Below the pieces are notes generated by a model, which made no database searches, was not told where the DNA came from, and saw only the letters and a list, made by a program, of their open reading frames with translations. DNA of 64,000 nucleotides, taken from Tubulanus polymorphus. Its lineage: Eukaryota > Animalia > Nemertea. The stretch lies in assembly GCF_964204645.1 (NCBI RefSeq), contig NW_027437431.1, forward strand, positions 62,001 through 126,000, given 5' to 3'. Position 1 is the first letter of the stretch, and every line of letters begins with the position of its first letter. Below, piece by piece: positions 1 through 64,000 of the stretch. Both the position numbers and the translations under genes were made by a program.

Positions 1-59
1 GTTAATGAAACTAGGTCGGAAAGATAACAAATTATTATTCAATATATCCTAAAGCTTCT

Positions 60-109
60 ACGAGGTTGGTCACGCGCTCGCTACGCTCGCCAGCGTGACA
101 CAACCTCGT
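60..109. other. Hairpin: 16-bp stem with 1-nt bulge, loop GCTCGCTACGCTCGCCA; candidate origin/Rep-binding element (each copy)
   Basis: ACGAGGTTG(60-68)/CAACCTCGT(101-109) and GTCACGC(69-75)/GCGTGAC(93-99) are exact reverse complements. Confidence 0.75.
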
Positions 110-501
110 GGACGCTCCAAAGATAATGAGTATGTGCTTGATAATGAGTGAATTAATTGGGAACCCTATAGCGGGTAAAAGGTAAGAAGTAGAAATTATA
201 GGGTTAGGGGTTATCATTATACTCGGATGCCCACAGCCCGTGGTGGTCTGTGACAGTGGAGGTTAGTTAAAGTTCGAGGCGTGTGACTAGTCGGGGGGAA
301 TAACATAGGCGGCTACGCCGCGATAGTTAGTCGGCAAGGTCGGCTGCGCCTCCGGCGGTACAGATTACATCTGAGTGTATTAGTCTACCAACGGAAGCCC
401 AAACCCTAAATAATATTAGTCGGAAAAATCTGAGTTAGAGGGTCGCAACCGGTTCAAACAATTTAACATCTCATACAGGTGACTCGTACTTTTAGTATCA
501 A

Positions 502-1584
502 ATGCCATCGTTGAAACGGAGGCGAAACGGATTTACATTGCCCGGTTTACCACATTGCGGTCCATTCAACGATATATCCAGTTACAAAAGCGAAGGAATA
601 GACGAAGTGTGCCGTATTCACGACAAAGAGTACGGAGAACTGCAAGAGAAATACGGTAAATGGGCTCCGTACTTCCAGTACAATTCAGCGGATCAGACAT
701 TTTTGGACAGTGCTTCGGGTGTGAACGGTGTAGGTGCGAGACTAACGTCGAGTGTATTCAGAGCAAAACGGGCGTTATTTCCAACAATGGCGGAAGAACC
801 GGCATTAAAAAGATCAAAGAGAACGGCGGAAACGGGGAGCGAAGAAGGGAACGCCCAACAAATGATGACTCACATGACGGAAAAGCCGTCACTACACTAT
901 AAGAGCGTGTTAATACATAGAGGTTACCTAACGTTTACGAATTGGGATCCGGACCAGGCGTACGGAGCATTCGGAAGAAAAGCGAAGATTTACTGTTCGG
1001 GAATGAGAACGTTTAACTTCGGATTAAAAGAAAGAGAAGGATGGAGAAGATTTCCAGCCAGCATGGATACCATAGGGATGTGGGATCAATTCAAAGTGAC
1101 TTCGGGTAAAATAACGTTATACCCCATAGCGAGCGAAAGCGCGGTAAGCTCTGATTCGAACGCGTTCCAAGATCCGATAGTATGGTTAAAGACGGCAGCC
1201 GATTGGGACTTGAAAGTGAAAGACTCGGCCGCCAATACTCACCAGGGATCGCCGTACGCCGATATAAATTTATTAACTCAAAAGCAAAGCTACAGGCAAT
1301 ACGAATTAGGTCGGGGATGCGTTAGCATGGGATTACCCATGTCGACCATAAGAACCGAAATACAAGACACGAGTGACCCGACAGACGTTACCAGATCGGT
1401 GAATATCGGGGATAACTCGGCGTGGTTAGACGGAGCGTACCGCGATCATTGGCAATCAGCCGCGCTCATTATGCAAATGTTAGTGTACAACGATTCGATA
1501 CACGCGGATTTAAACACGCCCCATACAGAAATTATCGTTCCAGCGGAAGTGGAGTTTACGATGATTCATAGAAACAGAGTATAA
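502..1584 (+). CDS. cap: Capsid protein (VP1-like) with N-terminal parvovirus-type phospholipase A2 domain, copy 1
   Basis: LPGLPHCGPFN (Ca-binding loop), DEVCRIHDKEY (catalytic HD), PYFQYNSADQTF and VFRAKR follow the parvoviral VP1u PLA2 pattern. WDQFKVTSGKITLYP resembles a CRESS jelly-roll strand motif. Basic NLS-like KRRR and KRSKR. Confidence 0.88.
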   Translation: MPSLKRRRNGFTLPGLPHCGPFNDISSYKSEGIDEVCRIHDKEYGELQEKYGKWAPYFQYNSADQTFLDSASGVNGVGARLTSSVFRAKRALFPTMAEEPALKRSKRTAETGSEEGNAQQMMTHMTEKPSLHYKSVLIHRGYLTFTNWDPDQAYGAFGRKAKIYCSGMRTFNFGLKEREGWRRFPASMDTIGMWDQFKVTSGKITLYPIASESAVSSDSNAFQDPIVWLKTAADWDLKVKDSAANTHQGSPYADINLLTQKQSYRQYELGRGCVSMGLPMSTIRTEIQDTSDPTDVTRSVNIGDNSAWLDGAYRDHWQSAALIMQMLVYNDSIHADLNTPHTEIIVPAEVEFTMIHRNRV

Positions 1585-1585
1585 T

Positions 1586-1894
1586 ATGATAATAACTTTC
1601 CTATTCTTGGCATCCGGTTTCCTACACGAGTACAAGTGGCACGTATATACTAAACGTATCATGAGTAGAACGCAACGATTCATGAAAATAAGAGACGAAG
1701 TGGCGAACGAGTGGGTCATCAAACACGACGTCAACGAAAATCGGGTACTAAGGGAACAACACATTACAGAAGTAGCGAAAAGGATATTCTACTACCGGGA
1801 AAAACAATGGGAACTAAGTCGAGAAACTGGTCGTTCACAACCGACAATCGAGCAGAAGTCTGCCTCGAAAGTCAAATCGGAACGTCAACAGTAA
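1586..1894 (+). CDS. Small ORF overlapping the 5' end of rep in another frame (102 aa, or 77 aa from ATG 1661); hypothetical accessory protein, present in all 19 copies
   Basis: Starts 1 nt after the cap stop, fills the cap-rep gap and is charged with a helical-looking sequence. No homology recognised. Confidence 0.45.
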   Translation: MIITFLFLASGFLHEYKWHVYTKRIMSRTQRFMKIRDEVANEWVIKHDVNENRVLREQHITEVAKRIFYYREKQWELSRETGRSQPTIEQKSASKVKSERQQ

Positions 1895-3210
1895 CCGTAC
1901 ACATAGGTCCGCAAGAAGATCCGGACGGTTACGCGCACGGAGTAATAATAACGTTAGCCAAAGGTACGCAACGACCGTTGAAACAGAGCGAAAACGCGAT
2001 TAGACAACTGTTACACTCGCTAGGCATTAGATTAGTTAACGACTACATCAAACCGACGGAAAAATTAGGCGCCTACATTCAATACATGTACAAAGAAGCC
2101 GACAAAATACCGGAAGAATTACGAGGTCACTTGGAGGTGAAAAACTCGAAAACGAACGACGACTTTTTCGGCCAAAAGATAAACGCGTTATACGCGGAAT
2201 ACCAACAAAGACCGGGACTAGCCGATTGGACGGCGAGAATAGTGAAGGAGTTCGGTTACAACGTACCCGAACTGAAAGTGAAAAGATCGTTTAAAAATTG
2301 GCCGGTAAGGGTAAAAGATATTACGAGAAACGCGGGTGACTTTGCGTTGAAAATGACGGACATAACAGAGCCGAAATTGACGCCGGAAATGGGAGTAGAA
2401 ATTATAACGAAATGCCTGGATAACGTTCAATCGGCGATGTGGGATGGTAAACATATAAATAAACGTGACCTGCTGGTAATATTGGTGAACGCGGCGATCG
2501 AGGGAGGTACGAGTAAAATCAGAAACGCGCCTCATATAATATTTTACGGAGATGCCGGGTCTGGTAAATCGATGTTGGCTAAATTATTGTTCCCGGATTC
2601 GATTACGAGCCAAATGCCGACGGATTCGGAAGGCGTAGGAGCGTGCGAGATGGGAGGAGGACAACGTATATTCAAAGTCGACGACGCCAGCGACGCTTTT
2701 TGGCACAACTCGGGGTTGTTGTCGATGATACTCGCGATGTACCAGTCCACCTGGGAGGCAAAAGTACATTCTAGTAAACAAAGTAACCCGCCGTGTATGA
2801 CGGTAATTACGACGAATTGTAAGAATCCGTTAGAGAAGTTCGCCTCTACAGTAGCTTTGGAAGCTGTGGAAAGGAGATTCTTGTCGGTGTATTTCAAAGG
2901 TAAAGCAGATTTGGGAAACGTAGTTTACGACATTACGCCGGGCGTATGCGAAGAAATATTAGAAATAATAGTTAACGAAATTAGACAAGGTAGATATCTG
3001 GACAACCAAGTCCACTTGGACGACTGGGAAACGGATGATGACGTGGTGATACCGTTCGAAAAAGAAAGAAACTTCATCGAAGCGTACCACGTAGGTCACA
3101 TGTCGGACGCGATGCATCAGAATATGGAGGAAAGGTTAAAACGTAAACGTAAAGAAGAAGACGATACGAATGAAACTCTTAAGTTCGCTAAACGCGGGGA
3201 AATCCTGTAG
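1807..3210 (+). CDS. rep: Replication initiator Rep/NS1-like protein (HUH endonuclease + SF3 helicase), 467 aa from first ATG, copy 1
   Basis: Motif I SRNWSFTTDN, motif II-like GYAHGV, motif III YIQYMYKE, Walker A GDAGSGKS, Walker B IFKVDD, motif C VITTN, Arg finger RRF, C-terminal KRKRK. The ORF track starts at GTG 1711; the first ATG (1807, ACAATGG) lies just before motif I. Confidence 0.92.
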   Translation: MGTKSRNWSFTTDNRAEVCLESQIGTSTVTVHIGPQEDPDGYAHGVIITLAKGTQRPLKQSENAIRQLLHSLGIRLVNDYIKPTEKLGAYIQYMYKEADKIPEELRGHLEVKNSKTNDDFFGQKINALYAEYQQRPGLADWTARIVKEFGYNVPELKVKRSFKNWPVRVKDITRNAGDFALKMTDITEPKLTPEMGVEIITKCLDNVQSAMWDGKHINKRDLLVILVNAAIEGGTSKIRNAPHIIFYGDAGSGKSMLAKLLFPDSITSQMPTDSEGVGACEMGGGQRIFKVDDASDAFWHNSGLLSMILAMYQSTWEAKVHSSKQSNPPCMTVITTNCKNPLEKFASTVALEAVERRFLSVYFKGKADLGNVVYDITPGVCEEILEIIVNEIRQGRYLDNQVHLDDWETDDDVVIPFEKERNFIEAYHVGHMSDAMHQNMEERLKRKRKEEDDTNETLKFAKRGEIL

Positions 3211-3221
3211 TTGGCAATGTA

Positions 3222-3227
3222 AATAAA
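3222..3227 (+). terminator. Putative polyadenylation signal AATAAA downstream of rep (each copy)
   Basis: AATAAA begins 12 nt after the rep TAG; a T/GT-rich tract follows at 3301-3311. Confidence 0.55.
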
Positions 3228-3267
3228 TCTATAAATAGAATTCTATAAATTTCTCAATTCGTTACTA

Positions 3268-3400
3268 CCAGTGGACCCGCAGACCCGCGGACCCACTGGC
3301 TGTTCGTTTTTCATGGTCTACCCCCCCTTATATATATAATAAGGAAAGAGAAGGAGGGTCCGCGGGTCCGCGGGTCTGCGGTATTCTCTAAACCGAGAAT
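3268..3400. promoter_or_regulatory. Candidate replication origin/promoter: inverted 8-bp iteron triplets flanking a C7 + TATATATA palindrome (each copy)
   Basis: GGACCCGC-AGACCCGC-GGACCC (3273-3294) faces GGGTCCGC-GGGTCCGC-GGGTCTGC (3356-3379). Perfect 18-bp IR at 3277-3294/3364-3381. CCTTAT/ATAAGG at 3326-3344. Confidence 0.6.
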
Positions 3401-3907
3401 CGAAAAGTTAATGAAACTAGGTCGGAAAGATAACAAATTATTATTCAATATATCCTAAAGCTTCTACGAGGTTGGTCACGCGCTCGCTACGCTCGCCAGC
3501 GTGACACAACCTCGTGGACGCTCCAAAGATAATGAGTATGTGCTTGATAATGAGTGAATTAATTGGGAACCCTATAGCGGGTAAAAGGTAAGAAGTAGAA
3601 ATTATAGGGTTAGGGGTTATCATTATACTCGGATGCCCACAGCCCGTGGTGGTCTGTGACAGTGGAGGTTAGTTAAAGTTCGAGGCGTGTGACTAGTCGG
3701 GGGGAATAACATAGGCGGCTACGCCGCGATAGTTAGTCGGCAAGGTCGGCTGCGCCTCCGGCGGTACAGATTACATCTGAGTGTATTAGTCTACCAACGG
3801 AAGCCCAAACCCTAAATAATATTAGTCGGAAAAATCTGAGTTAGAGGGTCGCAACCGGTTCAAACAATTTAACATCTCATACAGGTGACTCGTACTTTTA
3901 GTATCAA

Positions 3908-4990: not shown

Positions 4991-5212
4991 TATGATAATA
5001 ACTTTCCTATTCTTGGCATCCGGTTTCCTACACGAGTACAAGTGGCACGTATATACTAAACGTATCATGAGTAGAACGCAACGATTCATGAAAATAAGAG
5101 ACGAAGTGGCGAACGAGTGGGTCATCAAACACGACGTCAACGAAAATCGGGTACTAAGGGAACAACACATTACAGAAGTAGCGAAAAGGATATTCTACTA
5201 CCGGGAAAAACA

Positions 5213-10719: not shown

Positions 10720-11802
10720 ATGCCATCGTTGAAACGGAGGCGAAACGGATTTACATTGCCCGGTTTACCACATTGCGGTCCATTCAACGATATATCCAGT
10801 TACAAAAGCGAAGGAATAGACGAAGTGTGCCGTATTCACGACAAAGAGTACGGAGAACTGCAAGAGAAATACGGTAAATGGGCTCCGTACTTCCAGTACA
10901 ATTCAGCGGATCAGACATTTTTGGACAGTGCTTCGGGTGTGAACGGTGTAGGTGCGAGACTAACGTCGAGTGTATTCAGAGCAAAACGGGCGTTATTTCC
11001 AACAATGGCGGAAGAACCGGCATTAAAAAGATCAAAGAGAACGGCGGAAACGGGGAGCGAAGAAGGGAACGCCCAACAAATGATGACTCACATGACGGAA
11101 AAGCCGTCAATACACTATAAGAGCGTGTTAATACATAGAGGTTACCTAACGTTTACGAATTGGGATCCGGACCAGGCGTACGGAGCATTCGGAAGAAAAG
11201 CGAAGATTTACTGTTCGGGAATGAGAACGTTTAACTTCGGATTAAAAGAAAGAGAAGGATGGAGAAGATTTCCAGCCAGCATGGATACCATAGGGATGTG
11301 GGATCAATTCAAAGTGACTTCGGGTAAAATAACGTTATACCCCATAGCGAGCGAAAGCGCGGTAAGCTCTGATTCGAACGCGTTCCAAGATCCGATAGTA
11401 TGGTTAAAGACGGCAGCCGATTGGGACTTGAAAGTGAAAGACTCGGCCGCCAATACTCACCAGGGATCGCCGTACGCCGATATAAATTTATTAACTCAAA
11501 AGCAAAGCTACAGGCAATACGAATTAGGTCGGGGATGCGTTAGCATGGGATTACCCATGTCGACCATAAGAACCGAAATACAAGACACGAGTGACCCGAC
11601 AGACGTTACCAGATCGGTGAATATCGGGGATAACTCGGCGTGGTTAGACGGAGCGTACCGCGATCATTGGCAATCAGCCGCGCTCATTATGCAAATGTTA
11701 GTGTACAACGATTCGATACACGCGGATTTAAACACGCCCCATACAGAAATTATCGTTCCAGCGGAAGTGGAGTTTACGATGATTCATAGAAACAGAGTAT
11801 AA
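10720..11802 (+). CDS. cap: PLA2-capsid protein, copy 4 (L131I)
   Basis: C>A at 11110. Confidence 0.88.
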   Translation: MPSLKRRRNGFTLPGLPHCGPFNDISSYKSEGIDEVCRIHDKEYGELQEKYGKWAPYFQYNSADQTFLDSASGVNGVGARLTSSVFRAKRALFPTMAEEPALKRSKRTAETGSEEGNAQQMMTHMTEKPSIHYKSVLIHRGYLTFTNWDPDQAYGAFGRKAKIYCSGMRTFNFGLKEREGWRRFPASMDTIGMWDQFKVTSGKITLYPIASESAVSSDSNAFQDPIVWLKTAADWDLKVKDSAANTHQGSPYADINLLTQKQSYRQYELGRGCVSMGLPMSTIRTEIQDTSDPTDVTRSVNIGDNSAWLDGAYRDHWQSAALIMQMLVYNDSIHADLNTPHTEIIVPAEVEFTMIHRNRV

Positions 11803-12024
11803 TATGATAATAACTTTCCTATTCTTGGCATCCGGTTTCCTACACGAGTACAAGTGGCACGTATATACTAAACGTATCATGAGTAGAACGCAACGATTCA
11901 TGAAAATAAGAGACGAAGTGGCGAACGAGTGGGTCATCAAACACGACGTCAACGAAAATCGGGTACTAAGGGAACAACACATTACAGAAGTAGCGAAAAG
12001 GATATTCTACTACCGGGAAAAACA

Positions 12025-13428
12025 ATGGGAACTAAGTCGAGAAACTGGTCGTTCACAACCGACAATCGAGCAGAAGTCTGCCTCGAAAGTCAAATCGGAA
12101 CGTCAACAGTAACCGTACACATAGGTCCGCAAGAAGATCCGGACGGTTACGCGCACGGAGTAATAATAACGTTAGCCAAAGGTACGCAACGACCGTTGAA
12201 ACAGAGCGAAAACGCGATTAGACAACTGTTACACTCGCTAGGCATTAGATTAGTTAACGACTACATCAAACCGACGGAAAAATTAGGCGCCTACATTCAA
12301 TACATGTACAAAGAAGCCGACAAAATACCGGAAGAATTACGAGGTCACTTGGAGGTGAAAAACTCGAAAACGAACGACGACTTTTTCGGCCAAAAGATAA
12401 ACGCGTTATACGCGGAATACCAACAAAGACCGGGACTAGCCGATTGGACGGCGAGAATAGTGAAGGAGTTCGGTTACAACGTACCCGAACTGAAAGTGAA
12501 AAGATCGTTTAAAAATTGGCCGGTAAGGGTAAAAGATATTACGAGAAACGCGGGTGACTTTGCGTTGAAAATGACGGACATAACAGAGCCGAAATTGACG
12601 CCGGAAATGGGAGTAGAAATTATAACGAAATGCCTGGATAACGTTCAATCGGCGATGTGGGATGGTAAACATATAAATAAACGTGACCTGCTGGTAATAT
12701 TGGTGAACGCGGCGATCGAGGGAGGTACGAGTAAAATCAGAAACGCGCCTCATATAATATTTTACGGAGATGCCGGGTCTGGTAAATCGATGTTGGCTAA
12801 ATTATTGTTCCCGGATTCGATTACGAGCCAAATGCCGACGGATTCGGAAGGCGTAGGAGCGTGCGAGATGGGAGGAGGACAACGTATATTCAAAGTCGAC
12901 GACGCCAGCGACGCTTTTTGGCACAACTCGGGGTTGTTGTCGATGATACTCGCGATGTACCAGTCCACCTGGGAGGCAAAAGTACATTCTAGTAAACAAA
13001 GTAACCCGCCGTGTATGACGGTAATTACGACGAATTGTAAGAATCCGTTAGAGAAGTTCGCCTCTACAGTAGCTTTGGAAGCTGTGGAAAGGAGATTCTT
13101 GTCGGTGTATTTCAAAGGTAAAGCAGATTTGGGAAACGTAGTTTACGACATTACGCCGGGCGTATGCGAAGAAATATTAGAAATAATAGTTAACGAAATT
13201 AGACAAGGTAGATATCTGGACAACCAAGTCCACTTGGACGACTGGGAAACGGATGATGACGTGGTGATACCGTTCGAAAAAGAAAGAAACTTCATCGAAG
13301 CGTACCACGTAGGTCACATGTCGGACGCGATGCATCAGAATATGGAGGAAAGGTTAAAACGTAAACGTAAAGAAGAAGACGATACGAATGAAACTCTTAA
13401 GTTCGCTAAACGCGGGGAAATCCTGTAG
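12025..13428 (+). CDS. rep: Rep, copy 4
   Basis: Same protein as copy 1. Confidence 0.9.
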   Translation: MGTKSRNWSFTTDNRAEVCLESQIGTSTVTVHIGPQEDPDGYAHGVIITLAKGTQRPLKQSENAIRQLLHSLGIRLVNDYIKPTEKLGAYIQYMYKEADKIPEELRGHLEVKNSKTNDDFFGQKINALYAEYQQRPGLADWTARIVKEFGYNVPELKVKRSFKNWPVRVKDITRNAGDFALKMTDITEPKLTPEMGVEIITKCLDNVQSAMWDGKHINKRDLLVILVNAAIEGGTSKIRNAPHIIFYGDAGSGKSMLAKLLFPDSITSQMPTDSEGVGACEMGGGQRIFKVDDASDAFWHNSGLLSMILAMYQSTWEAKVHSSKQSNPPCMTVITTNCKNPLEKFASTVALEAVERRFLSVYFKGKADLGNVVYDITPGVCEEILEIIVNEIRQGRYLDNQVHLDDWETDDDVVIPFEKERNFIEAYHVGHMSDAMHQNMEERLKRKRKEEDDTNETLKFAKRGEIL

Positions 13429-14126
13429 TTGGCAATGTAAATAAATCTATAAATAGAATTCTATAAATTTCTCAATTCGTTACTACCAGTGGACCCGCAG
13501 ACCCGCGGACCCACTGGCTGTTCGTTTTTCATGGTCTACCCCCCCCTTATATACATAATAAGGAAAGAGAAGGAGGGTCCGCGGGTCCGCGGGTCTGCGG
13601 TATTCTCTAAACCGAGAATCGAAAAGTTAATGAAACTAGGTCGGAAAGATAACAAATTATTATTCAATATATCCTAAAGCTTCTACGAGGTTGGTCACGC
13701 GCTCGCTACGCTCGCCAGCGTGACACAACCTCGTGGACGCTCCAAAGATAATGAGTATGTGCTTGATAATGAGTGAATTAATTGGGAACCCTATAGCGGG
13801 TAAAAGGTAAGAAGTAGAAATTATAGGGTTAGGGGTTATCATTATACTCGGATGCCCACAGCCCGTGGTGGTCTGTGACAGTGGAGGTTAGTTAAAGTTC
13901 GAGGCGTGTGACTAGTCGGGGGGAATAACATAGGCGGCTACGCCGCGATAGTTAGTCGGCAAGGTCGGCTGCGCCTCCGGCGGTACAGATTACATCTGAG
14001 TGTATTAGTCTACCAACGGAAGCCCAAACCCTAAATAATATTAGTCGGAAAAATCTGAGTTAGAGGGTCGCAACCGGTTCAAACAATTTAACATCTCATA
14101 CAGGTGACTCGTACTTTTAGTATCAA

Positions 14127-15209
14127 ATGCCATCGTTGAAACGGAGGCGAAACGGATTTACATTGCCCGGTTTACCACATTGCGGTCCATTCAACGATAT
14201 ATCCAGTTACAAAAGCGAAGGAATAGACGAAGTGTGCCGTATTCACGACAAAGAGTACGGAGAACTGCAAGAGAAATACGGTAAATGGGCTCCGTACTTC
14301 CAGTACAATTCAGCGGATCAGACATTTTTGGACAGTGCTTCGGGTGTGAACGGTGTAGGTGCGAGACTAACGTCGAGTGTATTCAGAGCAAAACGGGCGT
14401 TATTTCCAACAATGGCGGAAGAACCGGCATTAAAAAGATCAAAGAGAACGGCGGAAACGGGGAGCGAAGAAGGGAACGCCCAACAAATGATGACTCACAT
14501 GACGGAAAAGCCGTCAATACACTATAAGAGCGTGTTAATACATAGAGGTTACCTAACGTTTACGAATTGGGATCCGGACCAGGCGTACGGAGCATTCGGA
14601 AGAAAAGCGAAGATTTACTGTTCGGGAATGAGAACGTTTAACTTCGGATTAAAAGAAAGAGAAGGATGGAGAAGATTTCCAGCCAGCATGGATACCATAG
14701 GGATGTGGGATCAATTCAAAGTGACTTCGGGTAAAATAACGTTATACCCCATAGCGAGCGAAAGCGCGGTAAGCTCTGATTCGAACGCGTTCCAAGATCC
14801 GATAGTATGGTTAAAGACGGCAGCCGATTGGGACTTGAAAGTGAAAGACTCGGCCGCCAATACTCACCAGGGATCGCCGTACGCCGATATAAATTTATTA
14901 ACTCAAAAGCAAAGCTACAGGCAATACGAATTAGGTCGGGGATGCGTTAGCATGGGATTACCCATGTCGACCATAAGAACCGAAATACAAGACACGAGTG
15001 ACCCGACAGACGTTACCAGATCGGTGAATATCGGGGATAACTCGGCGTGGTTAGACGGAGCGTACCGCGATCATTGGCAATCAGCCGCGCTCATTATGCA
15101 AATGTTAGTGTACAACGATTCGATACACGCGGATTTAAACACGCCCCATACAGAAATTATCGTTCCAGCGGAAGTGGAGTTTACGATGATTCATAGAAAC
15201 AGAGTATAA
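14127..15209 (+). CDS. cap: PLA2-capsid protein, copy 5 (L131I)
   Basis: C>A at 14517. Confidence 0.88.
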   Translation: MPSLKRRRNGFTLPGLPHCGPFNDISSYKSEGIDEVCRIHDKEYGELQEKYGKWAPYFQYNSADQTFLDSASGVNGVGARLTSSVFRAKRALFPTMAEEPALKRSKRTAETGSEEGNAQQMMTHMTEKPSIHYKSVLIHRGYLTFTNWDPDQAYGAFGRKAKIYCSGMRTFNFGLKEREGWRRFPASMDTIGMWDQFKVTSGKITLYPIASESAVSSDSNAFQDPIVWLKTAADWDLKVKDSAANTHQGSPYADINLLTQKQSYRQYELGRGCVSMGLPMSTIRTEIQDTSDPTDVTRSVNIGDNSAWLDGAYRDHWQSAALIMQMLVYNDSIHADLNTPHTEIIVPAEVEFTMIHRNRV

Positions 15210-18837: not shown

Positions 18838-20241
18838 ATGGGAACTAAGTCGAGAAACTGGTCGTTCACAACCGACAATCGAGCAGAAGTCTGCCTCGAA
18901 AGTCAAATCGGAACGTCAACAGTAACCGTACACATAGGTCCGCAAGAAGATCCGGACGGTTACGCGCACGGAGTAATAATAACGTTAGCCAAAGGTACGC
19001 AACGACCGTTGAAACAGAGCGAAAACGCGATTAGACAACTGTTACACTCGCTAGGCATTAGATTAGTTAACGACTACATCAAACCGACGGAAAAATTAGG
19101 CGCCTACATTCAATACATGTACAAAGAAGCCGACAAAATACCGGAAGAATTACGAGGTCACTTGGAGGTGAAAAACTCGAAAACGAACGACGACTTTTTC
19201 GGCCAAAAGATAAACGCGTTATACGCGGAATACCAACAAAGACCGGGACTAGCCGATTGGACGGCGAGAATAGTGAAGGAGTTCGGTTACAACGTACCCG
19301 AACTGAAAGTGAAAAGATCGTTTAAAAATTGGCCGGTAAGGGTAAAAGATATTACGAGAAACGCGGGTGACTTTGCGTTGAAAATGACGGACATAACAGA
19401 GCCGAAATTGACGCCGGAAATGGGAGTAGAAATTATAACGAAATGCCTGGATAACGTTCAATCGGCGATGTGGGATGGTAAACATATAAATAAACGTGAC
19501 CTGCTGGTAATATTGGTGAACGCGGCGATCGAGGGAGGTACGAGTAAAATCAGAAACGCGCCTCATATAATATTTTACGGAGATGCCGGGTCTGGTAAAT
19601 CGATGTTGGCTAAATTATTGTTCCCGGATTCGATTACGAGCCAAATGCCGACGGATTCGGAAGGCGTAGGAGCGTGCGAGATGGGAGGAGGACAACGTAT
19701 ATTCAAAGTCGACGACGCCAGCGACGCTTTTTGGCACAACTCGGGGTTGTTGTCGATGATACTCGCGATGTACCAGTCCACCTGGGAGGCAAAAGTACAT
19801 TCTAGTAAACAAAGTAACCCGCCGTGTATGACGGTAATTACGACGAATTGTAAGAATCCGTTAGAGAAGTTCGCCTCTACAGTAGCTTTGGAAGCTGTGG
19901 AAAGGAGATTCTTGTCGGTGTATTTCAAAGGTAAAGTAGATTTGGGAAACGTAGTTTACGACATTACGCCGGGCGTATGCGAAGAAATATTAGAAATAAT
20001 AGTTAACGAAATTAGACAAGGTAGATATCTGGACAACCAAGTCCACTTGGACGACTGGGAAACGGATGATGACGTGGTGATACCGTTCGAAAAAGAAAGA
20101 AACTTCATCGAAGCGTACCACGTAGGTCACATGTCGGACGCGATGCATCAGAATATGGAGGAAAGGTTAAAACGTAAACGTAAAGAAGAAGACGATACGA
20201 ATGAAACTCTTAAGTTCGCTAAACGCGGGGAAATCCTGTAG
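18838..20241 (+). CDS. rep: Rep, copy 6 (A>V, KGKVDL)
   Basis: C>T at 19937. Confidence 0.9.
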   Translation: MGTKSRNWSFTTDNRAEVCLESQIGTSTVTVHIGPQEDPDGYAHGVIITLAKGTQRPLKQSENAIRQLLHSLGIRLVNDYIKPTEKLGAYIQYMYKEADKIPEELRGHLEVKNSKTNDDFFGQKINALYAEYQQRPGLADWTARIVKEFGYNVPELKVKRSFKNWPVRVKDITRNAGDFALKMTDITEPKLTPEMGVEIITKCLDNVQSAMWDGKHINKRDLLVILVNAAIEGGTSKIRNAPHIIFYGDAGSGKSMLAKLLFPDSITSQMPTDSEGVGACEMGGGQRIFKVDDASDAFWHNSGLLSMILAMYQSTWEAKVHSSKQSNPPCMTVITTNCKNPLEKFASTVALEAVERRFLSVYFKGKVDLGNVVYDITPGVCEEILEIIVNEIRQGRYLDNQVHLDDWETDDDVVIPFEKERNFIEAYHVGHMSDAMHQNMEERLKRKRKEEDDTNETLKFAKRGEIL

Positions 20242-20938
20242 TTGGCAATGTAAATAAATCTATAAATAGAATTCTATAAATTTCTCAATTCGTTACTACC
20301 AGTGGACCCGCAGACCCGCGGACCCACTGGCTGTTCGTTTTTCATGGTCTACCCCCCCTTATATATATAATAAGGAAAGAGAAGGAGGGTCCGCGGGTCC
20401 GCGGGTCTGCGGTATTCTCTAAACCGAGAATCGAAAAGTTAATGAAACTAGGTCGGAAAGATAACAAATTATTATTCAATATATCCTAAAGCTTCTACGA
20501 GGTTGGTCACGCGCTCGCTACGCTCGCCAGCGTGACACAACCTCGTGGACGCTCCAAAGATAATGAGTATGTGCTTGATAATGAGTGAATTAATTGGGAA
20601 CCCTATAGCGGGTAAAAGGTAAGAAGTAGAAATTATAGGGTTAGGGGTTATCATTATACTCGGATGCCCACAGCCCGTGGTGGTCTGTGACAGTGGAGGT
20701 TAGTTAAAGTTCGAGGCGTGTGACTAGTCGGGGGGAATAACATAGGCGGCTACGCCGCGATAGTTAGTCGGCAAGGTCGGCTGCGCCTCCGGCGGTACAG
20801 ATTACATCTGAGTGTATTAGTCTACCAACGGAAGCCCAAACCCTAAATAATATTAGTCGGAAAAATCTGAGTTAGAGGGTCGCAACCGGTTCAAACAATT
20901 TAACATCTCATACAGGTGACTCGTACTTTTAGTATCAA

Positions 20939-22021
20939 ATGCCATCGTTGAAACGGAGGCGAAACGGATTTACATTGCCCGGTTTACCACATTGCGGTCC
21001 ATTCAACGATATATCCAGTTACAAAAGCGAAGGAATAGACGAAGTGTGCCGTATTCACGACAAAGAGTACGGAGAACTGCAAGAGAAATACGGTAAATGG
21101 GCTCCGTACTTCCAGTACAATTCAGCGGATCAGACATTTTTGGACAGTGCTTCGGGTGTGAACGGTGTAGGTGCGAGACTAACGTCGAGTGTATTCAGAG
21201 CAAAACGGGCGTTATTTCCAACAATGGCGGAAGAACCGGCATTAAAAAGATCAAAGAGAACGGCGGAAACGGGGAGCGAAGAAGGGAACGCCCAACAAAT
21301 GATGACTCACATGACGGAAAAGCCGTCACTACACTATAAGAGCGTGTTAATACATAGAGGTTACCTAACGTTTACGAATTGGGATCCGGACCAGGCGTAC
21401 GGAGCATTCGGAAGAAAAGCGAAGATTTACTGTTCGGGAATGAGAACGTTTAACTTCGGATTAAAAGAAAGAGAAGGATGGAGAAGATTTCCAGCCAGCA
21501 TGGATACCATAGGGATGTGGGATCAATTCAAAGTGACTTCGGGTAAAATAACGTTATACCCCATAGCGAGCGAAAGCGCGGTAAGCTCTGATTCGAACGC
21601 GTTCCAAGATCCGATAGTATGGTTAAAGACGGCAGCCGATTGGGACTTGAAAGTGAAAGACTCGGCCGCCAATACTCACCAGGGATCGCCGTACGCCGAT
21701 ATAAATTTATTAACTCAAAAGCAAAGCTACAGGCAATACGAATTAGGTCGGGGATGCGTTAGCATGGGATTACCCATGTCGACCATAAGAACCGAAATAC
21801 AAGACACGAGTGACCCGACAGACGTTACCAGATCGGTGAATATCGGGGATAACTCGGCGTGGTTAGACGGAGCGTACCGCGATCATTGGCAATCAGCCGC
21901 GCTCATTATGCAAATGTTAGTGTACAACGATTCGATACACGCGGATTTAAACACGCCCCATACAGAAATTATCGTTCCAGCGGAAGTGGAGTTTACGATG
22001 ATTCATAGAAACAGAGTATAA
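20939..22021 (+). CDS. cap: PLA2-capsid protein, copy 7
   Basis: Same protein as copy 1. Confidence 0.88.
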   Translation: MPSLKRRRNGFTLPGLPHCGPFNDISSYKSEGIDEVCRIHDKEYGELQEKYGKWAPYFQYNSADQTFLDSASGVNGVGARLTSSVFRAKRALFPTMAEEPALKRSKRTAETGSEEGNAQQMMTHMTEKPSLHYKSVLIHRGYLTFTNWDPDQAYGAFGRKAKIYCSGMRTFNFGLKEREGWRRFPASMDTIGMWDQFKVTSGKITLYPIASESAVSSDSNAFQDPIVWLKTAADWDLKVKDSAANTHQGSPYADINLLTQKQSYRQYELGRGCVSMGLPMSTIRTEIQDTSDPTDVTRSVNIGDNSAWLDGAYRDHWQSAALIMQMLVYNDSIHADLNTPHTEIIVPAEVEFTMIHRNRV

Positions 22022-22243
22022 TATGATAATAACTTTCCTATTCTTGGCATCCGGTTTCCTACACGAGTACAAGTGGCACGTATATACTAAACGTATCATG
22101 AGTAGAACGCAACGATTCATGAAAATAAGAGACGAAGTGGCGAACGAGTGGGTCATCAAACACGACGTCAACGAAAATCGGGTACTAAGGGAACAACACA
22201 TTACAGAAGTAGCGAAAAGGATATTCTACTACCGGGAAAAACA

Positions 22244-23647
22244 ATGGGAACTAAGTCGAGAAACTGGTCGTTCACAACCGACAATCGAGCAGAAGTCTGC
22301 CTCGAAAGTCAAATCGGAACGTCAACAGTAACCGTACACATAGGTCCGCAAGAAGATCCGGACGGTTACGCGCACGGAGTAATAATAACGTTAGCCAAAG
22401 GTACGCAACGACCGTTGAAACAGAGCGAAAACGCGATTAGACAACTGTTACACTCGCTAGGCATTAGATTAGTTAACGACTACATCAAACCGACGGAAAA
22501 ATTAGGCGCCTACATTCAATACATGTACAAAGAAGCCGACAAAATACCGGAAGAATTACGAGGTCACTTGGAGGTGAAAAACTCGAAAACGAACGACGAC
22601 TTTTTCGGCCAAAAGATAAACGCGTTATACGCGGAATACCAACAAAGACCGGGACTAGCCGATTGGACGGCGAGAATAGTGAAGGAGTTCGGTTACAACG
22701 TACCCGAACTGAAAGTGAAAAGATCGTTTAAAAATTGGCCGGTAAGGGTAAAAGATATTACGAGAAACGCGGGTGACTTTGCGTTGAAAATGACGGACAT
22801 AACAGAGCCGAAATTGACGCCGGAAATGGGAGTAGAAATTATAACGAAATGCCTGGATAACGTTCAATCGGCGATGTGGGATGGTAAACATATAAATAAA
22901 CGTGACCTGCTGGTAATATTGGTGAACGCGGCGATCGAGGGAGGTACGAGTAAAATCAGAAACGCGCCTCATATAATATTTTACGGAGATGCCGGGTCTG
23001 GTAAATCGATGTTGGCTAAATTATTGTTCCCGGATTCGATTACGAGCCAAATGCCGACGGATTCGGAAGGCGTAGGAGCGTGCGAGATGGGAGGAGGACA
23101 ACGTATATTCAAAGTCGACGACGCCAGCGACGCTTTTTGGCACAACTCGGGGTTGTTGTCGATGATACTCGCGATGTACCAGTCCACCTGGGAGGCAAAA
23201 GTACATTCTAGTAAACAAAGTAACCCGCCGTGTATGACGGTAATTACGACGAATTGTAAGAATCCGTTAGAGAAGTTCGCCTCTACAGTAGCTTTGGAAG
23301 CTGTGGAAAGGAGATTCTTGTCGGTGTATTTCAAAGGTAAAGTAGATTTGGGAAACGTAGTTTACGACATTACGCCGGGCGTATGCGAAGAAATATTAGA
23401 AATAATAGTTAACGAAATTAGACAAGGTAGATATCTGGACAACCAAGTCCACTTGGACGACTGGGAAACGGATGATGACGTGGTGATACCGTTCGAAAAA
23501 GAAAGAAACTTCATCGAAGCGTACCACGTAGGTCACATGTCGGACGCGATGCATCAGAATATGGAGGAAAGGTTAAAACGTAAACGTAAAGAAGAAGACG
23601 ATACGAATGAAACTCTTAAGTTCGCTAAACGCGGGGAAATCCTGTAG
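22244..23647 (+). CDS. rep: Rep, copy 7 (A>V, KGKVDL)
   Basis: C>T at 23343. Confidence 0.9.
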   Translation: MGTKSRNWSFTTDNRAEVCLESQIGTSTVTVHIGPQEDPDGYAHGVIITLAKGTQRPLKQSENAIRQLLHSLGIRLVNDYIKPTEKLGAYIQYMYKEADKIPEELRGHLEVKNSKTNDDFFGQKINALYAEYQQRPGLADWTARIVKEFGYNVPELKVKRSFKNWPVRVKDITRNAGDFALKMTDITEPKLTPEMGVEIITKCLDNVQSAMWDGKHINKRDLLVILVNAAIEGGTSKIRNAPHIIFYGDAGSGKSMLAKLLFPDSITSQMPTDSEGVGACEMGGGQRIFKVDDASDAFWHNSGLLSMILAMYQSTWEAKVHSSKQSNPPCMTVITTNCKNPLEKFASTVALEAVERRFLSVYFKGKVDLGNVVYDITPGVCEEILEIIVNEIRQGRYLDNQVHLDDWETDDDVVIPFEKERNFIEAYHVGHMSDAMHQNMEERLKRKRKEEDDTNETLKFAKRGEIL

Positions 23648-51592: not shown

Positions 51593-52675
51593 ATGCCATC
51601 GTTGAAACGGAGGCGAAACGGATTTACATTGCCCGGTTTACCACATTGCGGTCCATTCAACGATATATCCAGTTACAAAAGCGAAGGAATAGACGAAGTG
51701 TGCCGTATTCACGACAAAGAGTACGGAGAACTGCAAGAGAAATACGGTAAATGGGCTCCGTACTTCCAGTACAATTCAGCGGATCAGACATTTTTGGACA
51801 GTGCTTCGGGTGTGAACGGTGTAGGTGCGAGACTAACGTCGAGTGTATTCAGAGCAAAACGGGCGTTATTTCCAACAATGGCGGAAGAACCGGCATTAAA
51901 AAGATCAAAGAGAACGGCGGAAACGGGGAGCGAAGAAGGGAACGCCCAACAAATGATGACTCACATGACGGAAAAGCCGTCACTACACTATAAGAGCGTG
52001 TTAATACATAGAGGTTACCTAACGTTTACGAATTGGGATCCGGACCAGGCGTACGGAGCATTCGGAAGAAAAGCGAAGATTTACTGTTCGGGAATGAGAA
52101 CGTTTAACTTCGGATTAAAAGAAAGAGAAGGATGGAGAAGATTTCCAGCCAGCATGGATACCATAGGGATGTGGGATCAATTCAAAGTGACTTCGGGTAA
52201 AATAACGTTATACCCCATAGCGAGCGAAAGCGCGGTAAGCTCTGATTCGAACGCGTTCCAAGATCCGATAGTATGGTTAAAGACGGCAGCCGATTGGGAC
52301 TTGAAAGTGAAAGACTCGGCCGCCAATACTCACCAGGGATCGCCGTACGCCGATATAAATTTATTAACTCAAAAGCAAAGCTACAGGCAATACGAATTAG
52401 GTCGGGGATGCGTTAGCATGGGATTACCCATGTCGACCATAAGAACCGAAATACAAGACACGAGTGACCCGACAGACGTTACCAGATCGGTGAATATCGG
52501 GGATAACTCGGCGTGATTAGACGGAGCGTACCGCGATCATTGGCAATCAGCCGCGCTCATTATGCAAATGTTAGTGTACAACGATTCGATACACGCGGAT
52601 TTAAACACGCCCCATACAGAAATTATCGTTCCAGCGGAAGTGGAGTTTACGATGATTCATAGAAACAGAGTATAA
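51593..52675 (+). pseudogene. cap: Capsid gene copy 16 with premature stop (W308*; 307-aa product)
   Basis: TGG>TGA at 52514-52516; the rest of the gene is intact downstream. Confidence 0.8.
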
Positions 52676-57707: not shown

Positions 57708-58404
57708 TTGGCAATGTAAATAAATCTATAAATAGAATTCTATAAATTTCTCAATTCGTTACTACCAGTGGACCCGCAGACCCGCGGACCCACTGGCTGT
57801 TCGTTTTTCATGGTCTACCCCCCCTTATATATATAATAAGGAAAGAGAAGGAGGGTCCGCGGGTCCGCGGGTCTGCGGTATTCTCTAAACCGAGAATCGA
57901 AAAGTTAATGAAACTAGGTCGGAAAGATAACAAATTATTATTCAATATATCCTAAAGCTTCTACGAGGTTGGTCACGCGCTCGCTACGCTCGCCAGCGTG
58001 ACACAACCTCGTGGACGCTCCAAAGATAATGAGTATGTGCTTGATAATGAGTGAATTAATTGGGAACCCTATAGCGGGTAAAAGGTAAGAAGTAGAAATT
58101 ATAGGGTTAGGGGTTATCATTATACTCGGATGCCCACAGCCCGTGGTGGTCTGTGACAGTGGAGGTTAGTTAAAGTTCGAGGCGTGTGACTAGTCGGGGG
58201 GAATAACATAGGCGGCTACGCCGCGATAGTTAGTCGGCAAGGTCGGCTGCGCCTCCGGCGGTACAGATTACATCTGAGTGTATTAGTCTACCAACGGAAG
58301 CCCAAACCCTAAATAATATTAGTCGGAAAAATCTGAGTTAGAGGGTCGCAACCGGTTCAAACAATTTAACATCTCATACAGGTGACTCGTACTTTTAGTA
58401 TCAA

Positions 58405-59487: not shown

Positions 59488-59709
59488 TATGATAATAACT
59501 TTCCTATTCTTGGCATCCGGTTTCCTACACGAGTACAAGTGGCACGTATATACTAAACGTATCATGAGTAGAACGCAACGATTCATGAAAATAAGAGACG
59601 AAGTGGCGAACGAGTGGGTCATCAAACACGACGTCAACGAAAATCGGGTACTAAGGGAACAACACATTACAGAAGTAGCGAAAAGGATATTCTACTACCG
59701 GGAAAAACA

Positions 59710-61113: not shown

Positions 61114-61810
61114 TTGGCAATGTAAATAAATCTATAAATAGAATTCTATAAATTTCTCAATTCGTTACTACCAGTGGACCCGCAGACCCGCGGACCCACT
61201 GGCTGTTCGTTTTTCATGGTCTACCCCCCCTTATATATATAATAAGGAAAGAGAAGGAGGGTCCGCGGGTCCGCGGGTCTGCGGTATTCTCTAAACCGAG
61301 AATCGAAAAGTTAATGAAACTAGGTCGGAAAGATAACAAATTATTATTCAATATATCCTAAAGCTTCTACGAGGTTGGTCACGCGCTCGCTACGCTCGCC
61401 AGCGTGACACAACCTCGTGGACGCTCCAAAGATAATGAGTATGTGCTTGATAATGAGTGAATTAATTGGGAACCCTATAGCGGGTAAAAGGTAAGAAGTA
61501 GAAATTATAGGGTTAGGGGTTATCATTATACTCGGATGCCCACAGCCCGTGGTGGTCTGTGACAGTGGAGGTTAGTTAAAGTTCGAGGCGTGTGACTAGT
61601 CGGGGGGAATAACATAGGCGGCTACGCCGCGATAGTTAGTCGGCAAGGTCGGCTGCGCCTCCGGCGGTACAGATTACATCTGAGTGTATTAGTCTACCAA
61701 CGGAAGCCCAAACCCTAAATAATATTAGTCGGAAAAATCTGAGTTAGAGGGTCGCAACCGGTTCAAACAATTTAACATCTCATACAGGTGACTCGTACTT
61801 TTAGTATCAA

Positions 61811-62893
61811 ATGCCATCGTTGAAACGGAGGCGAAACGGATTTACATTGCCCGGTTTACCACATTGCGGTCCATTCAACGATATATCCAGTTACAAAAGC
61901 GAAGGAATAGACGAAGTGTGCCGTATTCACGACAAAGAGTACGGAGAACTGCAAGAGAAATACGGTAAATGGGCTCCGTACTTCCAGTACAATTCAGCGG
62001 ATCAGACATTTTTGGACAGTGCTTCGGGTGTGAACGGTGTAGGTGCGAGACTAACGTCGAGTGTATTCAGAGCAAAACGGGCGTTATTTCCAACAATGGC
62101 GGAAGAACCGGCATTAAAAAGATCAAAGAGAACGGCGGAAACGGGGAGCGAAGAAGGGAACGCCCAACAAATGATGACTCACATGACGGAAAAGCCGTCA
62201 CTACACTATAAGAGCGTGTTAATACATAGAGGTTACCTAACGTTTACGAATTGGGATCCGGACCAGGCGTACGGAGCATTCGGAAGAAAAGCGAAGATTT
62301 ACTGTTCGGGAATGAGAACGTTTAACTTCGGATTAAAAGAAAGAGAAGGATGGAGAAGATTTCCAGCCAGCATGGATACCATAGGGATGTGGGATCAATT
62401 CAAAGTGACTTCGGGTAAAATAACGTTATACCCCATAGCGAGCGAAAGCGCGGTAAGCTCTGATTCGAACGCGTTCCAAGATCCGATAGTATGGTTAAAG
62501 ACGGCAGCCGATTGGGACTTGAAAGTGAAAGACTCGGCCGCCAATACTCACCAGGGATCGCCGTACGCCGATATAAATTTATTAACTCAAAAGCAAAGCT
62601 ACAGGCAATACGAATTAGGTCGGGGATGCGTTAGCATGGGATTACCCATGTCGACCATAAGAACCGAAATACAAGACACGAGTGACCCGACAGACGTTAC
62701 CAGATCGGTGAATATCGGGGATAACTCGGCGTGGTTAGACGGAGCGTACCGCGATCATTGGCAATCAGCCGCGCTCATTATGCAAATGTTAGTGTACAAC
62801 GATTCGATACACGCGGATTTAAACACGCCCCATACAGAAATTATCGTTCCAGCGGAAGTGGAGTTTACGATGATTCATAGAAACAGAGTATAA
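61811..62893 (+). CDS. cap: PLA2-capsid protein, copy 19
   Basis: Same protein as copy 1. Confidence 0.88.
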   Translation: MPSLKRRRNGFTLPGLPHCGPFNDISSYKSEGIDEVCRIHDKEYGELQEKYGKWAPYFQYNSADQTFLDSASGVNGVGARLTSSVFRAKRALFPTMAEEPALKRSKRTAETGSEEGNAQQMMTHMTEKPSLHYKSVLIHRGYLTFTNWDPDQAYGAFGRKAKIYCSGMRTFNFGLKEREGWRRFPASMDTIGMWDQFKVTSGKITLYPIASESAVSSDSNAFQDPIVWLKTAADWDLKVKDSAANTHQGSPYADINLLTQKQSYRQYELGRGCVSMGLPMSTIRTEIQDTSDPTDVTRSVNIGDNSAWLDGAYRDHWQSAALIMQMLVYNDSIHADLNTPHTEIIVPAEVEFTMIHRNRV

Positions 62894-63115
62894 TATGATA
62901 ATAACTTTCCTATTCTTGGCATCCGGTTTCCTACACGAGTACAAGTGGCACGTATATACTAAACGTATCATGAGTAGAACGCAACGATTCATGAAAATAA
63001 GAGACGAAGTGGCGAACGAGTGGGTCATCAAACACGACGTCAACGAAAATCGGGTACTAAGGGAACAACACATTACAGAAGTAGCGAAAAGGATATTCTA
63101 CTACCGGGAAAAACA

Positions 63116-64000
63116 ATGGGAACTAAGTCGAGAAACTGGTCGTTCACAACCGACAATCGAGCAGAAGTCTGCCTCGAAAGTCAAATCGGAACGTCAACAG
63201 TAACCGTACACATAGGTCCGCAAGAAGATCCGGACGGTTACGCGCACGGAGTAATAATAACGTTAGCCAAAGGTACGCAACGACCGTTGAAACAGAGCGA
63301 AAACGCGATTAGACAACTGTTACACTCGCTAGGCATTAGATTAGTTAACGACTACATCAAACCGACGGAAAAATTAGGCGCCTACATTCAATACATGTAC
63401 AAAGAAGCCGACAAAATACCGGAAGAATTACGAGGTCACTTGGAGGTGAAAAACTCGAAAACGAACGACGACTTTTTCGGCCAAAAGATAAACGCGTTAT
63501 ACGCGGAATACCAACAAAGACCGGGACTAGCCGATTGGACGGCGAGAATAGTGAAGGAGTTCGGTTACAACGTACCCGAACTGAAAGTGAAAAGATCGTT
63601 TAAAAATTGGCCGGTAAGGGTAAAAGATATTACGAGAAACGCGGGTGACTTTGCGTTGAAAATGACGGACATAACAGAGCCGAAATTGACGCCGGAAATG
63701 GGAGTAGAAATTATAACGAAATGCCTGGATAACGTTCAATCGGCGATGTGGGATGGTAAACATATAAATAAACGTGACCTGCTGGTAATATTGGTGAACG
63801 CGGCGATCGAGGGAGGTACGAGTAAAATCAGAAACGCGCCTCATATAATATTTTACGGAGATGCCGGGTCTGGTAAATCGATGTTGGCTAAATTATTGTT
63901 CCCGGATTCGATTACGAGCCAAATGCCGACGGATTCGGAAGGCGTAGGAGCGTGCGAGATGGGAGGAGGACAACGTATATTCAAAGTCGACGACGCCAGC
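63116..64000 (+). CDS. rep: Rep, copy 19 (cut by window end just after Walker B)
   Basis: Matches copy 1 positions 1807-2691; open to the window edge. Confidence 0.85.
   Translation, partial: MGTKSRNWSFTTDNRAEVCLESQIGTSTVTVHIGPQEDPDGYAHGVIITLAKGTQRPLKQSENAIRQLLHSLGIRLVNDYIKPTEKLGAYIQYMYKEADKIPEELRGHLEVKNSKTNDDFFGQKINALYAEYQQRPGLADWTARIVKEFGYNVPELKVKRSFKNWPVRVKDITRNAGDFALKMTDITEPKLTPEMGVEIITKCLDNVQSAMWDGKHINKRDLLVILVNAAIEGGTSKIRNAPHIIFYGDAGSGKSMLAKLLFPDSITSQMPTDSEGVGACEMGGGQRIFKVDDAS

Follow-up and report, generated by a model that had tools for sequence, protein, structure and literature searches.

The window, the whole 64,000-nucleotide stretch analysed here (1..64000, plus strand), consists of near-identical copies of a viral genome and probably, if by a modest margin, belongs to a chromosomal array that was amplified recently in an animal host. 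It contains 18.79 direct head-to-tail copies of a 3,406-bp unit, with unit starts at 1, 3407, 6813, 10219, 13626 and so on to 61310, and the array overruns both window ends. Seventeen of the 18 complete units have 3,406 bp and one has 3,407 bp; the partial 19th copy comprises 2,691 bp. All repeated 20-mers of the window recur at multiples of the unit length. No inverted 20-mer was detected in the 64 kb, and thus neither a head-to-head junction nor a spacer. The rep gene is open in every one of the 18 complete copies, the 19th being truncated where the window stops, and the cap gene in 18 of 19. These repeat and ORF counts bear out a preceding sequence-only reading, which had described at least 18.8 direct copies free of inversions and spacers, with intact rep genes and 18 of 19 cap genes intact. 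A search of positions 1-4000 against Rfam gave no match.

The copies are 99.98% uniform. Relative to copy 1 there are 11 differences at nine sites, comprising eight substitutions and a single-base homopolymer insertion. Seven of the nine sites are confined to one copy, with unchanged copies on either side. The other two are each shared by adjacent copies, namely copies 4 and 5 (11110..14517, unit position 892) and copies 6 and 7 (19937..23343, unit position 2906); the chance of both being so placed is 0.011. Such a pattern of single-copy and neighbour-shared variants, eight of nine being substitutions, would fit a stable array in which sites mutate and stretches are duplicated locally.

The capsid-like gene (copy 1 at 502..1584, plus strand, 360 aa) recurs every 3,406 bp. 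The interrupted copy is number 16 (51593..52675, plus strand), with a premature stop at codon 308 (window position 52516). Residues ~1-114 form a PLA2 domain of the parvovirus VP1u type (Pfam PF08398, E 2.4e-11); parvovirus VP1 chains match residues 1-114 with an E value of 1.3e-12, and the HD and YN..D motifs align. The similarity to VP1 is restricted to this PLA2 region, and the core of ~240 aa has no parvovirus coat match. With the capsids of its relatives (see below) the core shares weak homology (hhalign probability 51%, E 1.6e-4, 38 columns). The best match of the capsid protein in the Atlas is a PLA2-bearing capsid cluster made up mostly of Cressdnaviricota records. A single-sequence model reached a pLDDT of 32.9, too low to be used for a jelly-roll fold. 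A small ORF of 102 codons (1586..1894, plus strand), missing from the sequence-only reading, overlaps the start of rep in a different frame and is open in 19 of 19 copies. It has no Pfam match above the cut-off, and the relatives carry a small ORF in the equivalent position.

The Rep/NS gene (copy 1 at 1807..3210, plus strand, 467 aa) encodes a nickase-like N-terminal domain and an SF3 helicase. In the alignment columns of the nickase-like motifs the window Rep reads WSFT, HGVI, in which the first His of HUH is replaced, and YMYK. Motif I, H44 and Y93-x-x-K96 are conserved in the family alignment; the first His is found in 8 of 23 rows and is absent from the window Rep. The helicase contains Walker A (residues 248-255), Walker B (292-293), motif C (337) and RRF (356-358). 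Motifs I-III, SF3 and the RRF arginine finger are all present in Rep, motif II in degenerate form. In structural comparisons of the Rep model (pLDDT 80.8) the helicase matched papillomavirus E1 (Z 13.1) and AAV Rep (Z 12.8) in a tie. E1, AAV Rep and B19 NS1 superimpose with Z values of 12-13 (B19 NS1 11.9) over ~180 residues and an rmsd of 3.2-3.5, and PCV2 Rep gives a weaker and shorter match (Z 8.5, residues 236-369). Structural matches of Rep have sequence identities of 10-15%. The SF3 helicase is common to other families besides Parvoviridae. The Atlas neighbours of Rep are Rep_OBD, Viral_Rep and Parvo_NS1 clusters, CRESS Reps included. None of the 23 aligned family members matched Pfam Parvo_NS1, nor did any Pfam Rep family rise above noise. 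A profile of the Rep family against the PDB returned AAA-type noise only (best E 0.015), with E1 missing among the best 60 matches. Rep appears to be about equally distant from parvovirus NS1, papillomavirus E1 and CRESS Reps.

An inverted repeat of 8-bp iterons is located at 3266..3383. Its perfect 18-bp arms (3277-3381) enclose a spacer of ~62 nt with a TATA-rich mini stem-loop, and its fold is unusually stable (z -5.7 and -6.1; 0 of 200 shuffles equally stable). This element is likely to be an origin or end-to-end junction. A second intergenic hairpin lies at 57..112 (in copy 2 at 3463-3518; z -4.6, a stability reached by 0 of 200 shuffles). Positions 531 and 3213 show an inverted match of 12 bp, which was discounted as chance. 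The longest perfect arm in the unit is 18 bp, and there is no long hairpin. The CRESS nonanucleotide (NANTATTAC-type) is absent from the intergenic region, its pattern occurring only at two minus-strand sites inside rep; a non-canonical origin is possible. Since the arms measure only 18 bp and the nonanucleotide is missing, the unit may be an end-joined form and not a complete circle capable of infection. Hence, it is unproven that every interval amounts to a full infectious genome, as had been proposed. Of the claim of an intact ssDNA-virus genome, the ssDNA-virus type of the unit and its open genes stand, whereas its completeness is a matter of interpretation.

An exhaustive HMMER search yielded 48 relatives of Rep with identities of 22-42%. 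Neither Rep nor cap had a match in word-indexed protein searches, a query with the alignment returned one match that was already known, and scans of viral_contigs and a first metagenome scan revealed no relative. Among the 30 representatives looked up none is named as a virus, and the contigs of four measure between 126 kb and 1.9 Mb. A gene model of the sea squirt Styela clava is one of the Rep relatives. Relatives fetched with their DNA share the gene order cap-small ORF-rep. Of 25 relative loci, 8 have a PLA2-cap match upstream of rep, and the hairpin lies 3' of rep. Fetched loci adjoin animal transposon domains, which from their Pfam assignments we take to be of BEL/Pao and piggyBac type. 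Together with the Styela clava gene model and the long contigs, these transposons show that the lineage enters animal genomes.

The palindromes that follow rep in the relatives measure 118-274 nt with arms of 24-85 bp and are present in both flip and flop forms. Consequently, at least one branch of the lineage should be linear and parvovirus-like. The hairpin-ended relatives belong to a branch other than that of the window (Rep identity 25-27%), so that the window's own branch could still be circular; the loci examined all lie off that branch. In a quick Rep tree of the unnamed relatives only, the window falls into no well-supported set. One relative (L003) has a head-to-tail join from which the hairpin is missing. 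The sequence-only reading had taken head-to-tail order as a sign of a circular, rolling-circle virus and not of a parvovirus-type one. This argument is not supported, because relatives with the same gene order are hairpin-ended, and because AAV, a linear parvovirus, forms head-to-tail concatemers with HSV-1, up to 13 copies per read according to PMC8195378. The literature searched, which included few subscription papers, contained no description of the lineage or of such an array. It appears to be an unnamed lineage of parvovirus-like small DNA viruses with the capsid gene ahead of the replicase gene.

With Parvoviridae the window unit shares the VP1u-type PLA2 at the capsid N-terminus, which is common but not universal in that family, the SF3 helicase with an N-terminal helical part as in AAV Rep40 (Z 12.8) and B19 NS1 (11.9), and the iteron-bearing inverted repeat, to which the relatives add flip/flop terminal hairpins. 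In contrast to monosense parvoviruses, in which NS is upstream of VP, the window has the order cap, small ORF and rep from a single large intergenic region; the ~240-aa capsid core, the lack of a long hairpin and the missing Pfam Parvo_NS1 match are further differences. Cressdnaviricota are resembled in Rep motifs I-III, SF3 and RRF, in the Atlas neighbours and in the loop formed by the unit in contig graphs, whereas the absent intergenic nonanucleotide stem-loop, the weaker PCV2 Rep match and the hairpin ends of the relatives set the lineage apart. E1 is among the top structural matches of the window Rep, which recalls the RepE1 cressviruses and apparently circular parvoviruses of Buck et al. 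RepE1 proteins, however, have a BLAST-detectable similarity to E1 (PMC11071296), in contrast to the family profile analysed here, and the capsids differ. Six motifs of our family were not found in six supplements of that paper, which does report high-copy integration in marine invertebrate datasets.

Multicopy ssDNA-virus DNA in eukaryote genomes has precedents. The geminivirus-related DNA (GRD) of Nicotiana contains rep only. Both GRD and the IHHNV EVE of shrimp, as portrayed in PMC3187698 and PMC8982415, are old or fragmented, whereas the window array is made of whole, open units of 99.98% uniformity. Release of viral genomes from tandem copies is known (PMC3187698).

In contigs of the sequencing runs X1, X2, X3 and X4, which come from two samples of one study, the end of the unit always joins its start; no difference from the unit is listed for X1-X3, and one is listed for X4. 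Such a loop results equally from a tandem array and from a monomeric circle. One X1 contig spans 3,381 of the 3,406 bp. X4 covers the unit patchily at ~10x, and X5 (two 151-bp contigs, depth ~4) was left out. None of the nine X1 records with at least 95% identity continues into other DNA; because contigs drop rare forms, the absent host junction is moderate evidence against a chromosomal array. The variants of the window do not occur in the X1 contigs and are thus unconfirmed as multi-read variants. In run X6, from another study with the same species label, 0 of 2,049 aligned reads match the unit at 99% or more. The unit is therefore not fixed in the species, and infection is possible. The unit is thus present in two samples of one study and absent from X6.

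A sister element, mostly less than 90% identical to the unit, is present in both X1 and X6. In 12% of run X6 it is 140-250 reads deep with about equal strands, and, of 40 listed sites above low depth that were read in one or both of X1 and X6, 36 have the same variant letters. These observations point to a standing dsDNA family of high copy number in the host. The depths of the unit and of the sister rep contig are 1980 and 81 in X1, and 153-706 and 24.5 in X2, contig depth not being equal to copy number. The ratios are of the same order in two samples, which weakly supports an array.

Low-depth branches survived in the X2 and X3 contigs. Their loose ends were not accepted as array-host junctions, since they may be library chimeras or, equally possibly, small fragments inserted in that sample. 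In X2 and X3 depth falls with distance from GATC (rho -0.77 and -0.63; 30 non-independent bins). The nine distinct loose ends listed have a median distance of 33 nt from GATC, versus 123 by chance (p 0.026). Both features hint at a proximity-ligation library. However, only one of the nine is exactly at GATC, and three of six X2 ends recur in X3 with the same partner, which leaves small inserted fragments equally possible. For X4 a rho of -0.46 was also obtained, which weakens the GATC argument.

The most serious alternative, to which we give a substantial but clearly minority weight, is an extrachromosomal one, in which long head-to-tail dsDNA concatemers were assembled into one contig. They could arise by rolling-circle or recombination-dependent replication in infected animals or, the library types being unrecorded, by phi29 amplification in the tube. 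The closed loop and lack of a junction in the X1 contigs, the absence of the unit from X6, CpG that is not depleted (observed/expected 1.54 in the unit) and the many relatives on virus-sized contigs of 2.7-5.3 kb all agree with concatemers. AAV (PMC8195378, as above) and geminiviruses, with long, over-length linear dsDNA multimers (PMC10653810), offer precedents. A variant of a single template would, however, be expected in all copies, and most variants of the window occur in one or two. An identical junction in two samples would be expected only if the virus is truly circular. Products of phi29 often contain fold-back junctions, and none exists in the 64 kb.

Looping of the assembler round monomeric 3.4-kb circles, with no multimer at all, would explain the simple circular form of the X1-X4 contig graph. 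It is improbable, since identical copies or homopolymer errors would then be expected, not eight scattered substitutions with two sites shared by neighbours. Furthermore, size-selected long-read libraries seldom contain 3.4-kb monomers, and one-base gap bubbles suggest that X1 is such a library. Least probable of all is a chromosomal array in a co-sequenced parasite, symbiont or prey instead of the labelled species, which would agree with the missing flank of the window and the absence of the unit from X6 but not with the high depth of the sister element in X6, whose study is a different one under that species label.

A recently amplified array in a host chromosome, as claimed by the sequence-only reading, accordingly remains the likeliest state, with a little more than even confidence, although no junction was found and no X1 record leads into other DNA. 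We propose that one viral genome was closed end to end, or was circular from the outset, and that either rolling-circle synthesis or its joining into the chromosome came next. The chromosomal copies would subsequently have been expanded and homogenised by unequal crossing-over. This route would account for a single, uniform junction, for rare mutations confined to one copy and for mutations that neighbours have in common. Should the window's branch be linear, as its relatives are, the units, which lack full terminal hairpins, would fall short of complete virion genomes.

The virus lineage appears to be unnamed regardless of the form in which the array exists. It combines a PLA2 of parvovirus type with a small capsid core, a gene order that is reversed, a remote Rep and, in the relatives, hairpin ends, and thereby bears on the relationships between linear and circular ssDNA viruses. 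If the array is a concatemer, it still represents a new virus and in addition calls for caution with assemblies. A chromosomal array would be a rare instance of an ssDNA virus genome shortly after it entered the germline and was amplified there; its genes are open, and samples differ in whether they carry it. How a virus gives rise to satellite DNA, and how such DNA is silenced, would then be directly testable. More speculatively, and in our view rather doubtfully, an undescribed family-level capsid-first lineage may repeatedly colonise invertebrate germlines; in the present host its Rep would have expanded whole genomes with open genes into inherited macrosatellites that differ between individuals, with parallel amplification of the sister element. 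If so, the array would stand as a living intermediate linking virus and satellite DNA, and a linear virus would become a head-to-tail repeat by losing its terminal hairpins.

The window consists of a single repeat. In a 20-mer comparison every repeated 20-mer returned at 3,406 or 3,407 bp or multiples thereof, and no inverted 20-mers were found in the 64-kb window, which holds 18 whole units plus 2,691 bp of a 19th and no flanking DNA. Rep is open in 18/18 complete copies and the small ORF in 19/19, while cap is open in 18/19, copy 16 carrying a premature stop at codon 308. The sequence-only reading, which had described an uninverted direct repeat with these same rep and cap counts, was accurate in this respect. 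Comparison with copy 1 gives 11 differences at nine sites, eight of them substitutions and one a one-base insertion. Seven sites are single-copy and two are common to neighbours, namely unit position 892 (copies 4 and 5) and 2906 (copies 6 and 7); the chance of both pairs being adjacent is 0.011. Two of the nine sites, at 13539 and 13554 in copy 4, lie 15 bp apart in the spacer between the iteron arms and perhaps reflect one repair event at an origin or junction.

The unit is present in four runs of one study covering two samples (X1–X4), whose contigs all close from unit end to unit start; the junction shows no listed difference in X1–X3 and one in X4. A single X1 contig covers 3,381 of the 3,406 bp at a depth of 1,980. 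Since none of nine X1 records at ≥95% identity runs on into other DNA, a simple array with unique flanks is disfavoured, bearing in mind that contigs drop rare forms. Nor do the X1 contigs show any of the window's variants. X2 and X3, from one sample, show loose ends, three of the six in X2 recurring in X3; at window 2433, 2681 and 4319 both runs have the same non-viral partner sequence. Since depth in these runs follows GATC sites, the loose ends may have arisen by ligation, as library chimeras, or may mark small pieces of viral DNA inserted in the host genome; we did not accept them as the ends of the array.

In X6, a run from another study under the same species label, none of 2,049 reads placed on window 1700–5100 matched the unit at ≥99%. 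These reads belong largely to a sister element, mostly <90% identical to the unit (1,777 reads at <90%, 268 at 90–95%), whose depth is 140–250 reads in 12% of the run with both strands alike. The sister is also found in X1, with the same letters as in X6 at most sites among those listed. Its contig depth there is 430–453 over cap and the small ORF and 81 over rep; the roughly fivefold deeper cap half suggests many copies without rep or with a different rep. Since the sister occurs in X1 and X6 and the unit is missing from X6, high-depth double-stranded DNA of this lineage apparently recurs in the host, the window's element being patchy.

On this evidence we lean towards an array in a chromosome of the labelled host. 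Free or phi29-generated concatemers are a lesser but serious possibility, and over-length linear dsDNA is described in geminivirus replication (PMC10653810). A concatemer copied from one template would be expected to repeat the template's variants in all copies, whereas those seen here are single-copy or common to exactly two neighbours; by inference, this favours a stable array. Assembler looping, to be read beside the closing contigs on one side and the copy-specific variants on the other, is improbable. An array in a co-sequenced organism, set beside the unit's absence from X6 and the sister's presence in both studies, is still less probable.

Within the unit, cap (502–1584), a small ORF (1586–1894) and rep (1807–3210) lie in this order on the + strand, followed by 697 non-coding bases. 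In the intergenic region 8-bp iterons make up an inverted repeat that flanks a spacer of ~62 nt (3266–3383, fold z −5.7), and a second hairpin lies at 57–112 (fold z −4.6). The replicon works like that of a parvovirus or a CRESS virus and is filed under neither: its gene order departs from the one that defines parvoviruses, and a pattern search of the intergenic region found no NANTATTAC-type nonanucleotide, the origin that defines CRESS viruses. Published descriptions of the lineage, or of an array like this one, were not found in a literature search. Passages of two surveys that deal with divergent parvoviruses give other layouts (PMC13426907, PMC9896142), and six family motifs are absent from six supplements of PMC11071296; three further, large files of that paper may hold these proteins.

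In its nickase-like part Rep carries motif I (WSFT) and motif III (Y93-x-x-K96), motif II being degenerate; the helicase part has Walker A and B, motif C and an RRF arginine finger. Its model (pLDDT 80.8) matches the SF3 helicases papillomavirus E1 (Z 13.1), AAV Rep (Z 12.8) and B19 NS1 (Z 11.9), and over a shorter range PCV2 Rep (Z 8.5). A search of viral structures gave interleaved E1, parvovirus NS1, CRESS Rep and adomavirus matches at 10–15% identity. The first His of the HUH site (residues 42–44, window 1930–1938) is replaced, and only 8 of the 23 aligned Reps have it; the motif III Tyr is conserved in the alignment, as is a GPxE motif immediately upstream of the site. Judged from sequence, the nickase-like domain possibly has a different metal-binding arrangement. 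Residues 273–278, between Walker A and Walker B, form a DxxGVG motif that is found in 22/23 rows and makes a handy lineage signature.

Residues 1–114 of cap correspond to a PLA2 domain of the parvovirus VP1u type, with E 2.4e-11 in Pfam and E 1.3e-12 against parvovirus VP1 chains, and the first-listed Atlas match of cap is a PLA2-bearing capsid cluster (0.93). The residual ~240 residues match nothing among solved structures and align weakly with the capsid cores of relatives. Since this core has no solved counterpart and the single-sequence model of cap is unusable, the capsid label is based on indirect signs and gene position. An internal Met at residue 96 precedes a basic stretch (window 787–825) and, by analogy with parvovirus VP2, could start a shorter, PLA2-less capsid protein.

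An exhaustive search of 1.84 billion representatives returned 48 Rep relatives with E values no higher than 0.001 (22–42% identical). None of 30 representatives looked up has a virus name; apart from an uncharacterized gene model of Styela clava and a single 'hypothetical protein', all are unnamed. Their contigs range from virus size (2.7–5.3 kb) up to 126 kb–1.9 Mb (4/30). A metagenome scan, in which 26 of 81 pattern matches were confirmed, gave 25 loci (L001–L025), 17 of them distinct; the two Rep clusters represented, P0012-like and P0014-like, both lie outside the window's own branch. In eight loci rep is preceded by a PLA2-cap match and an overlapping small ORF sits between the two, as in the window, and most others are truncated or rearranged, several with broken frames. 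The capsid-like gene of a P0014-like element (L025, 5239–6840) has no PLA2 match, so PLA2 varies within the lineage. Relatives (L004 2720–3418 and equivalents) have a ~230-aa ORF that overlaps rep's 3' half in a different frame; none of such size occurs in the window unit.

Downstream (3') of rep, P0012-like loci have a 180–274-nt palindrome with an asymmetric bubble and P0014-like loci one of 118 nt, with perfect arms of 24–85 bp in seven loci measured versus 18 bp in the window unit. A hairpin motif scored in eight loci has one orientation in three (L005, L013, L021) and is the reverse complement in five (L004, L007, L008, L009, L010; L009 and L010 are one locus). Assembler inversion is an unlikely cause, since L007 and L021 end at the hairpin tip. 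Flip and flop ends are a mark of parvovirus rolling-hairpin replication. A 27-bp motif is also inverted at the left end (L012, L014), and from their sequences these relatives look linear. In L003 the hairpin is absent and the right inner end is joined head-to-tail to sequence of the left end, which matches L002 at 90% over 99 bp. AAV, too, forms head-to-tail concatemers, of as many as 13 copies, when its circularised genome is copied by rolling circle (PMC8195378). The earlier step from head-to-tail copies to a circular virus is thus undercut. The hairpin-ended relatives share 25–27% Rep identity with the window and fall within a seven-row clade that excludes it in a quick Rep tree (support 99); this clade keeps the first His of motif II, unlike the window Rep. 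Since they are another clade, and since parts of PMC11071296 report some parvovirus-like groups as apparently circular, the window's own branch may be circular.

For the array, one genome closed end to end, or already circular, would have supplied the single iteron-flanked junction, and rolling-circle copying, with its own Rep and a host polymerase as the probable enzymes, would have multiplied it; integration followed by unequal crossing-over is an alternative route. Amplification was presumably recent, judging from the still-open genes and the lack of CpG depletion (observed/expected 1.54). Circular ssDNA viruses are known to release unit-length genomes from tandem copies (PMC3187698). Here such release needs an active nickase and a complete origin. 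Because motif II is degenerate and completeness of the origin is uncertain if hairpins were lost, reactivation has no more than an even chance, even given a real array.

Flanks of three relatives' loci (L017, L019, L020) encode integrase-zinc-finger/DUF5641 and DDE_Tnp_1_7 domains, which we take to be BEL/Pao and piggyBac elements of animals, and identical flanks are seen again across runs. Consequently, the lineage has become endogenous repeatedly. One set of related metagenome runs (L001–L022) contains at least 16 distinct P0012-like copies, 70–90% alike, some with an open rep and some broken, rearranged or host-flanked. These elements constitute a large endogenous family that merits separate study.
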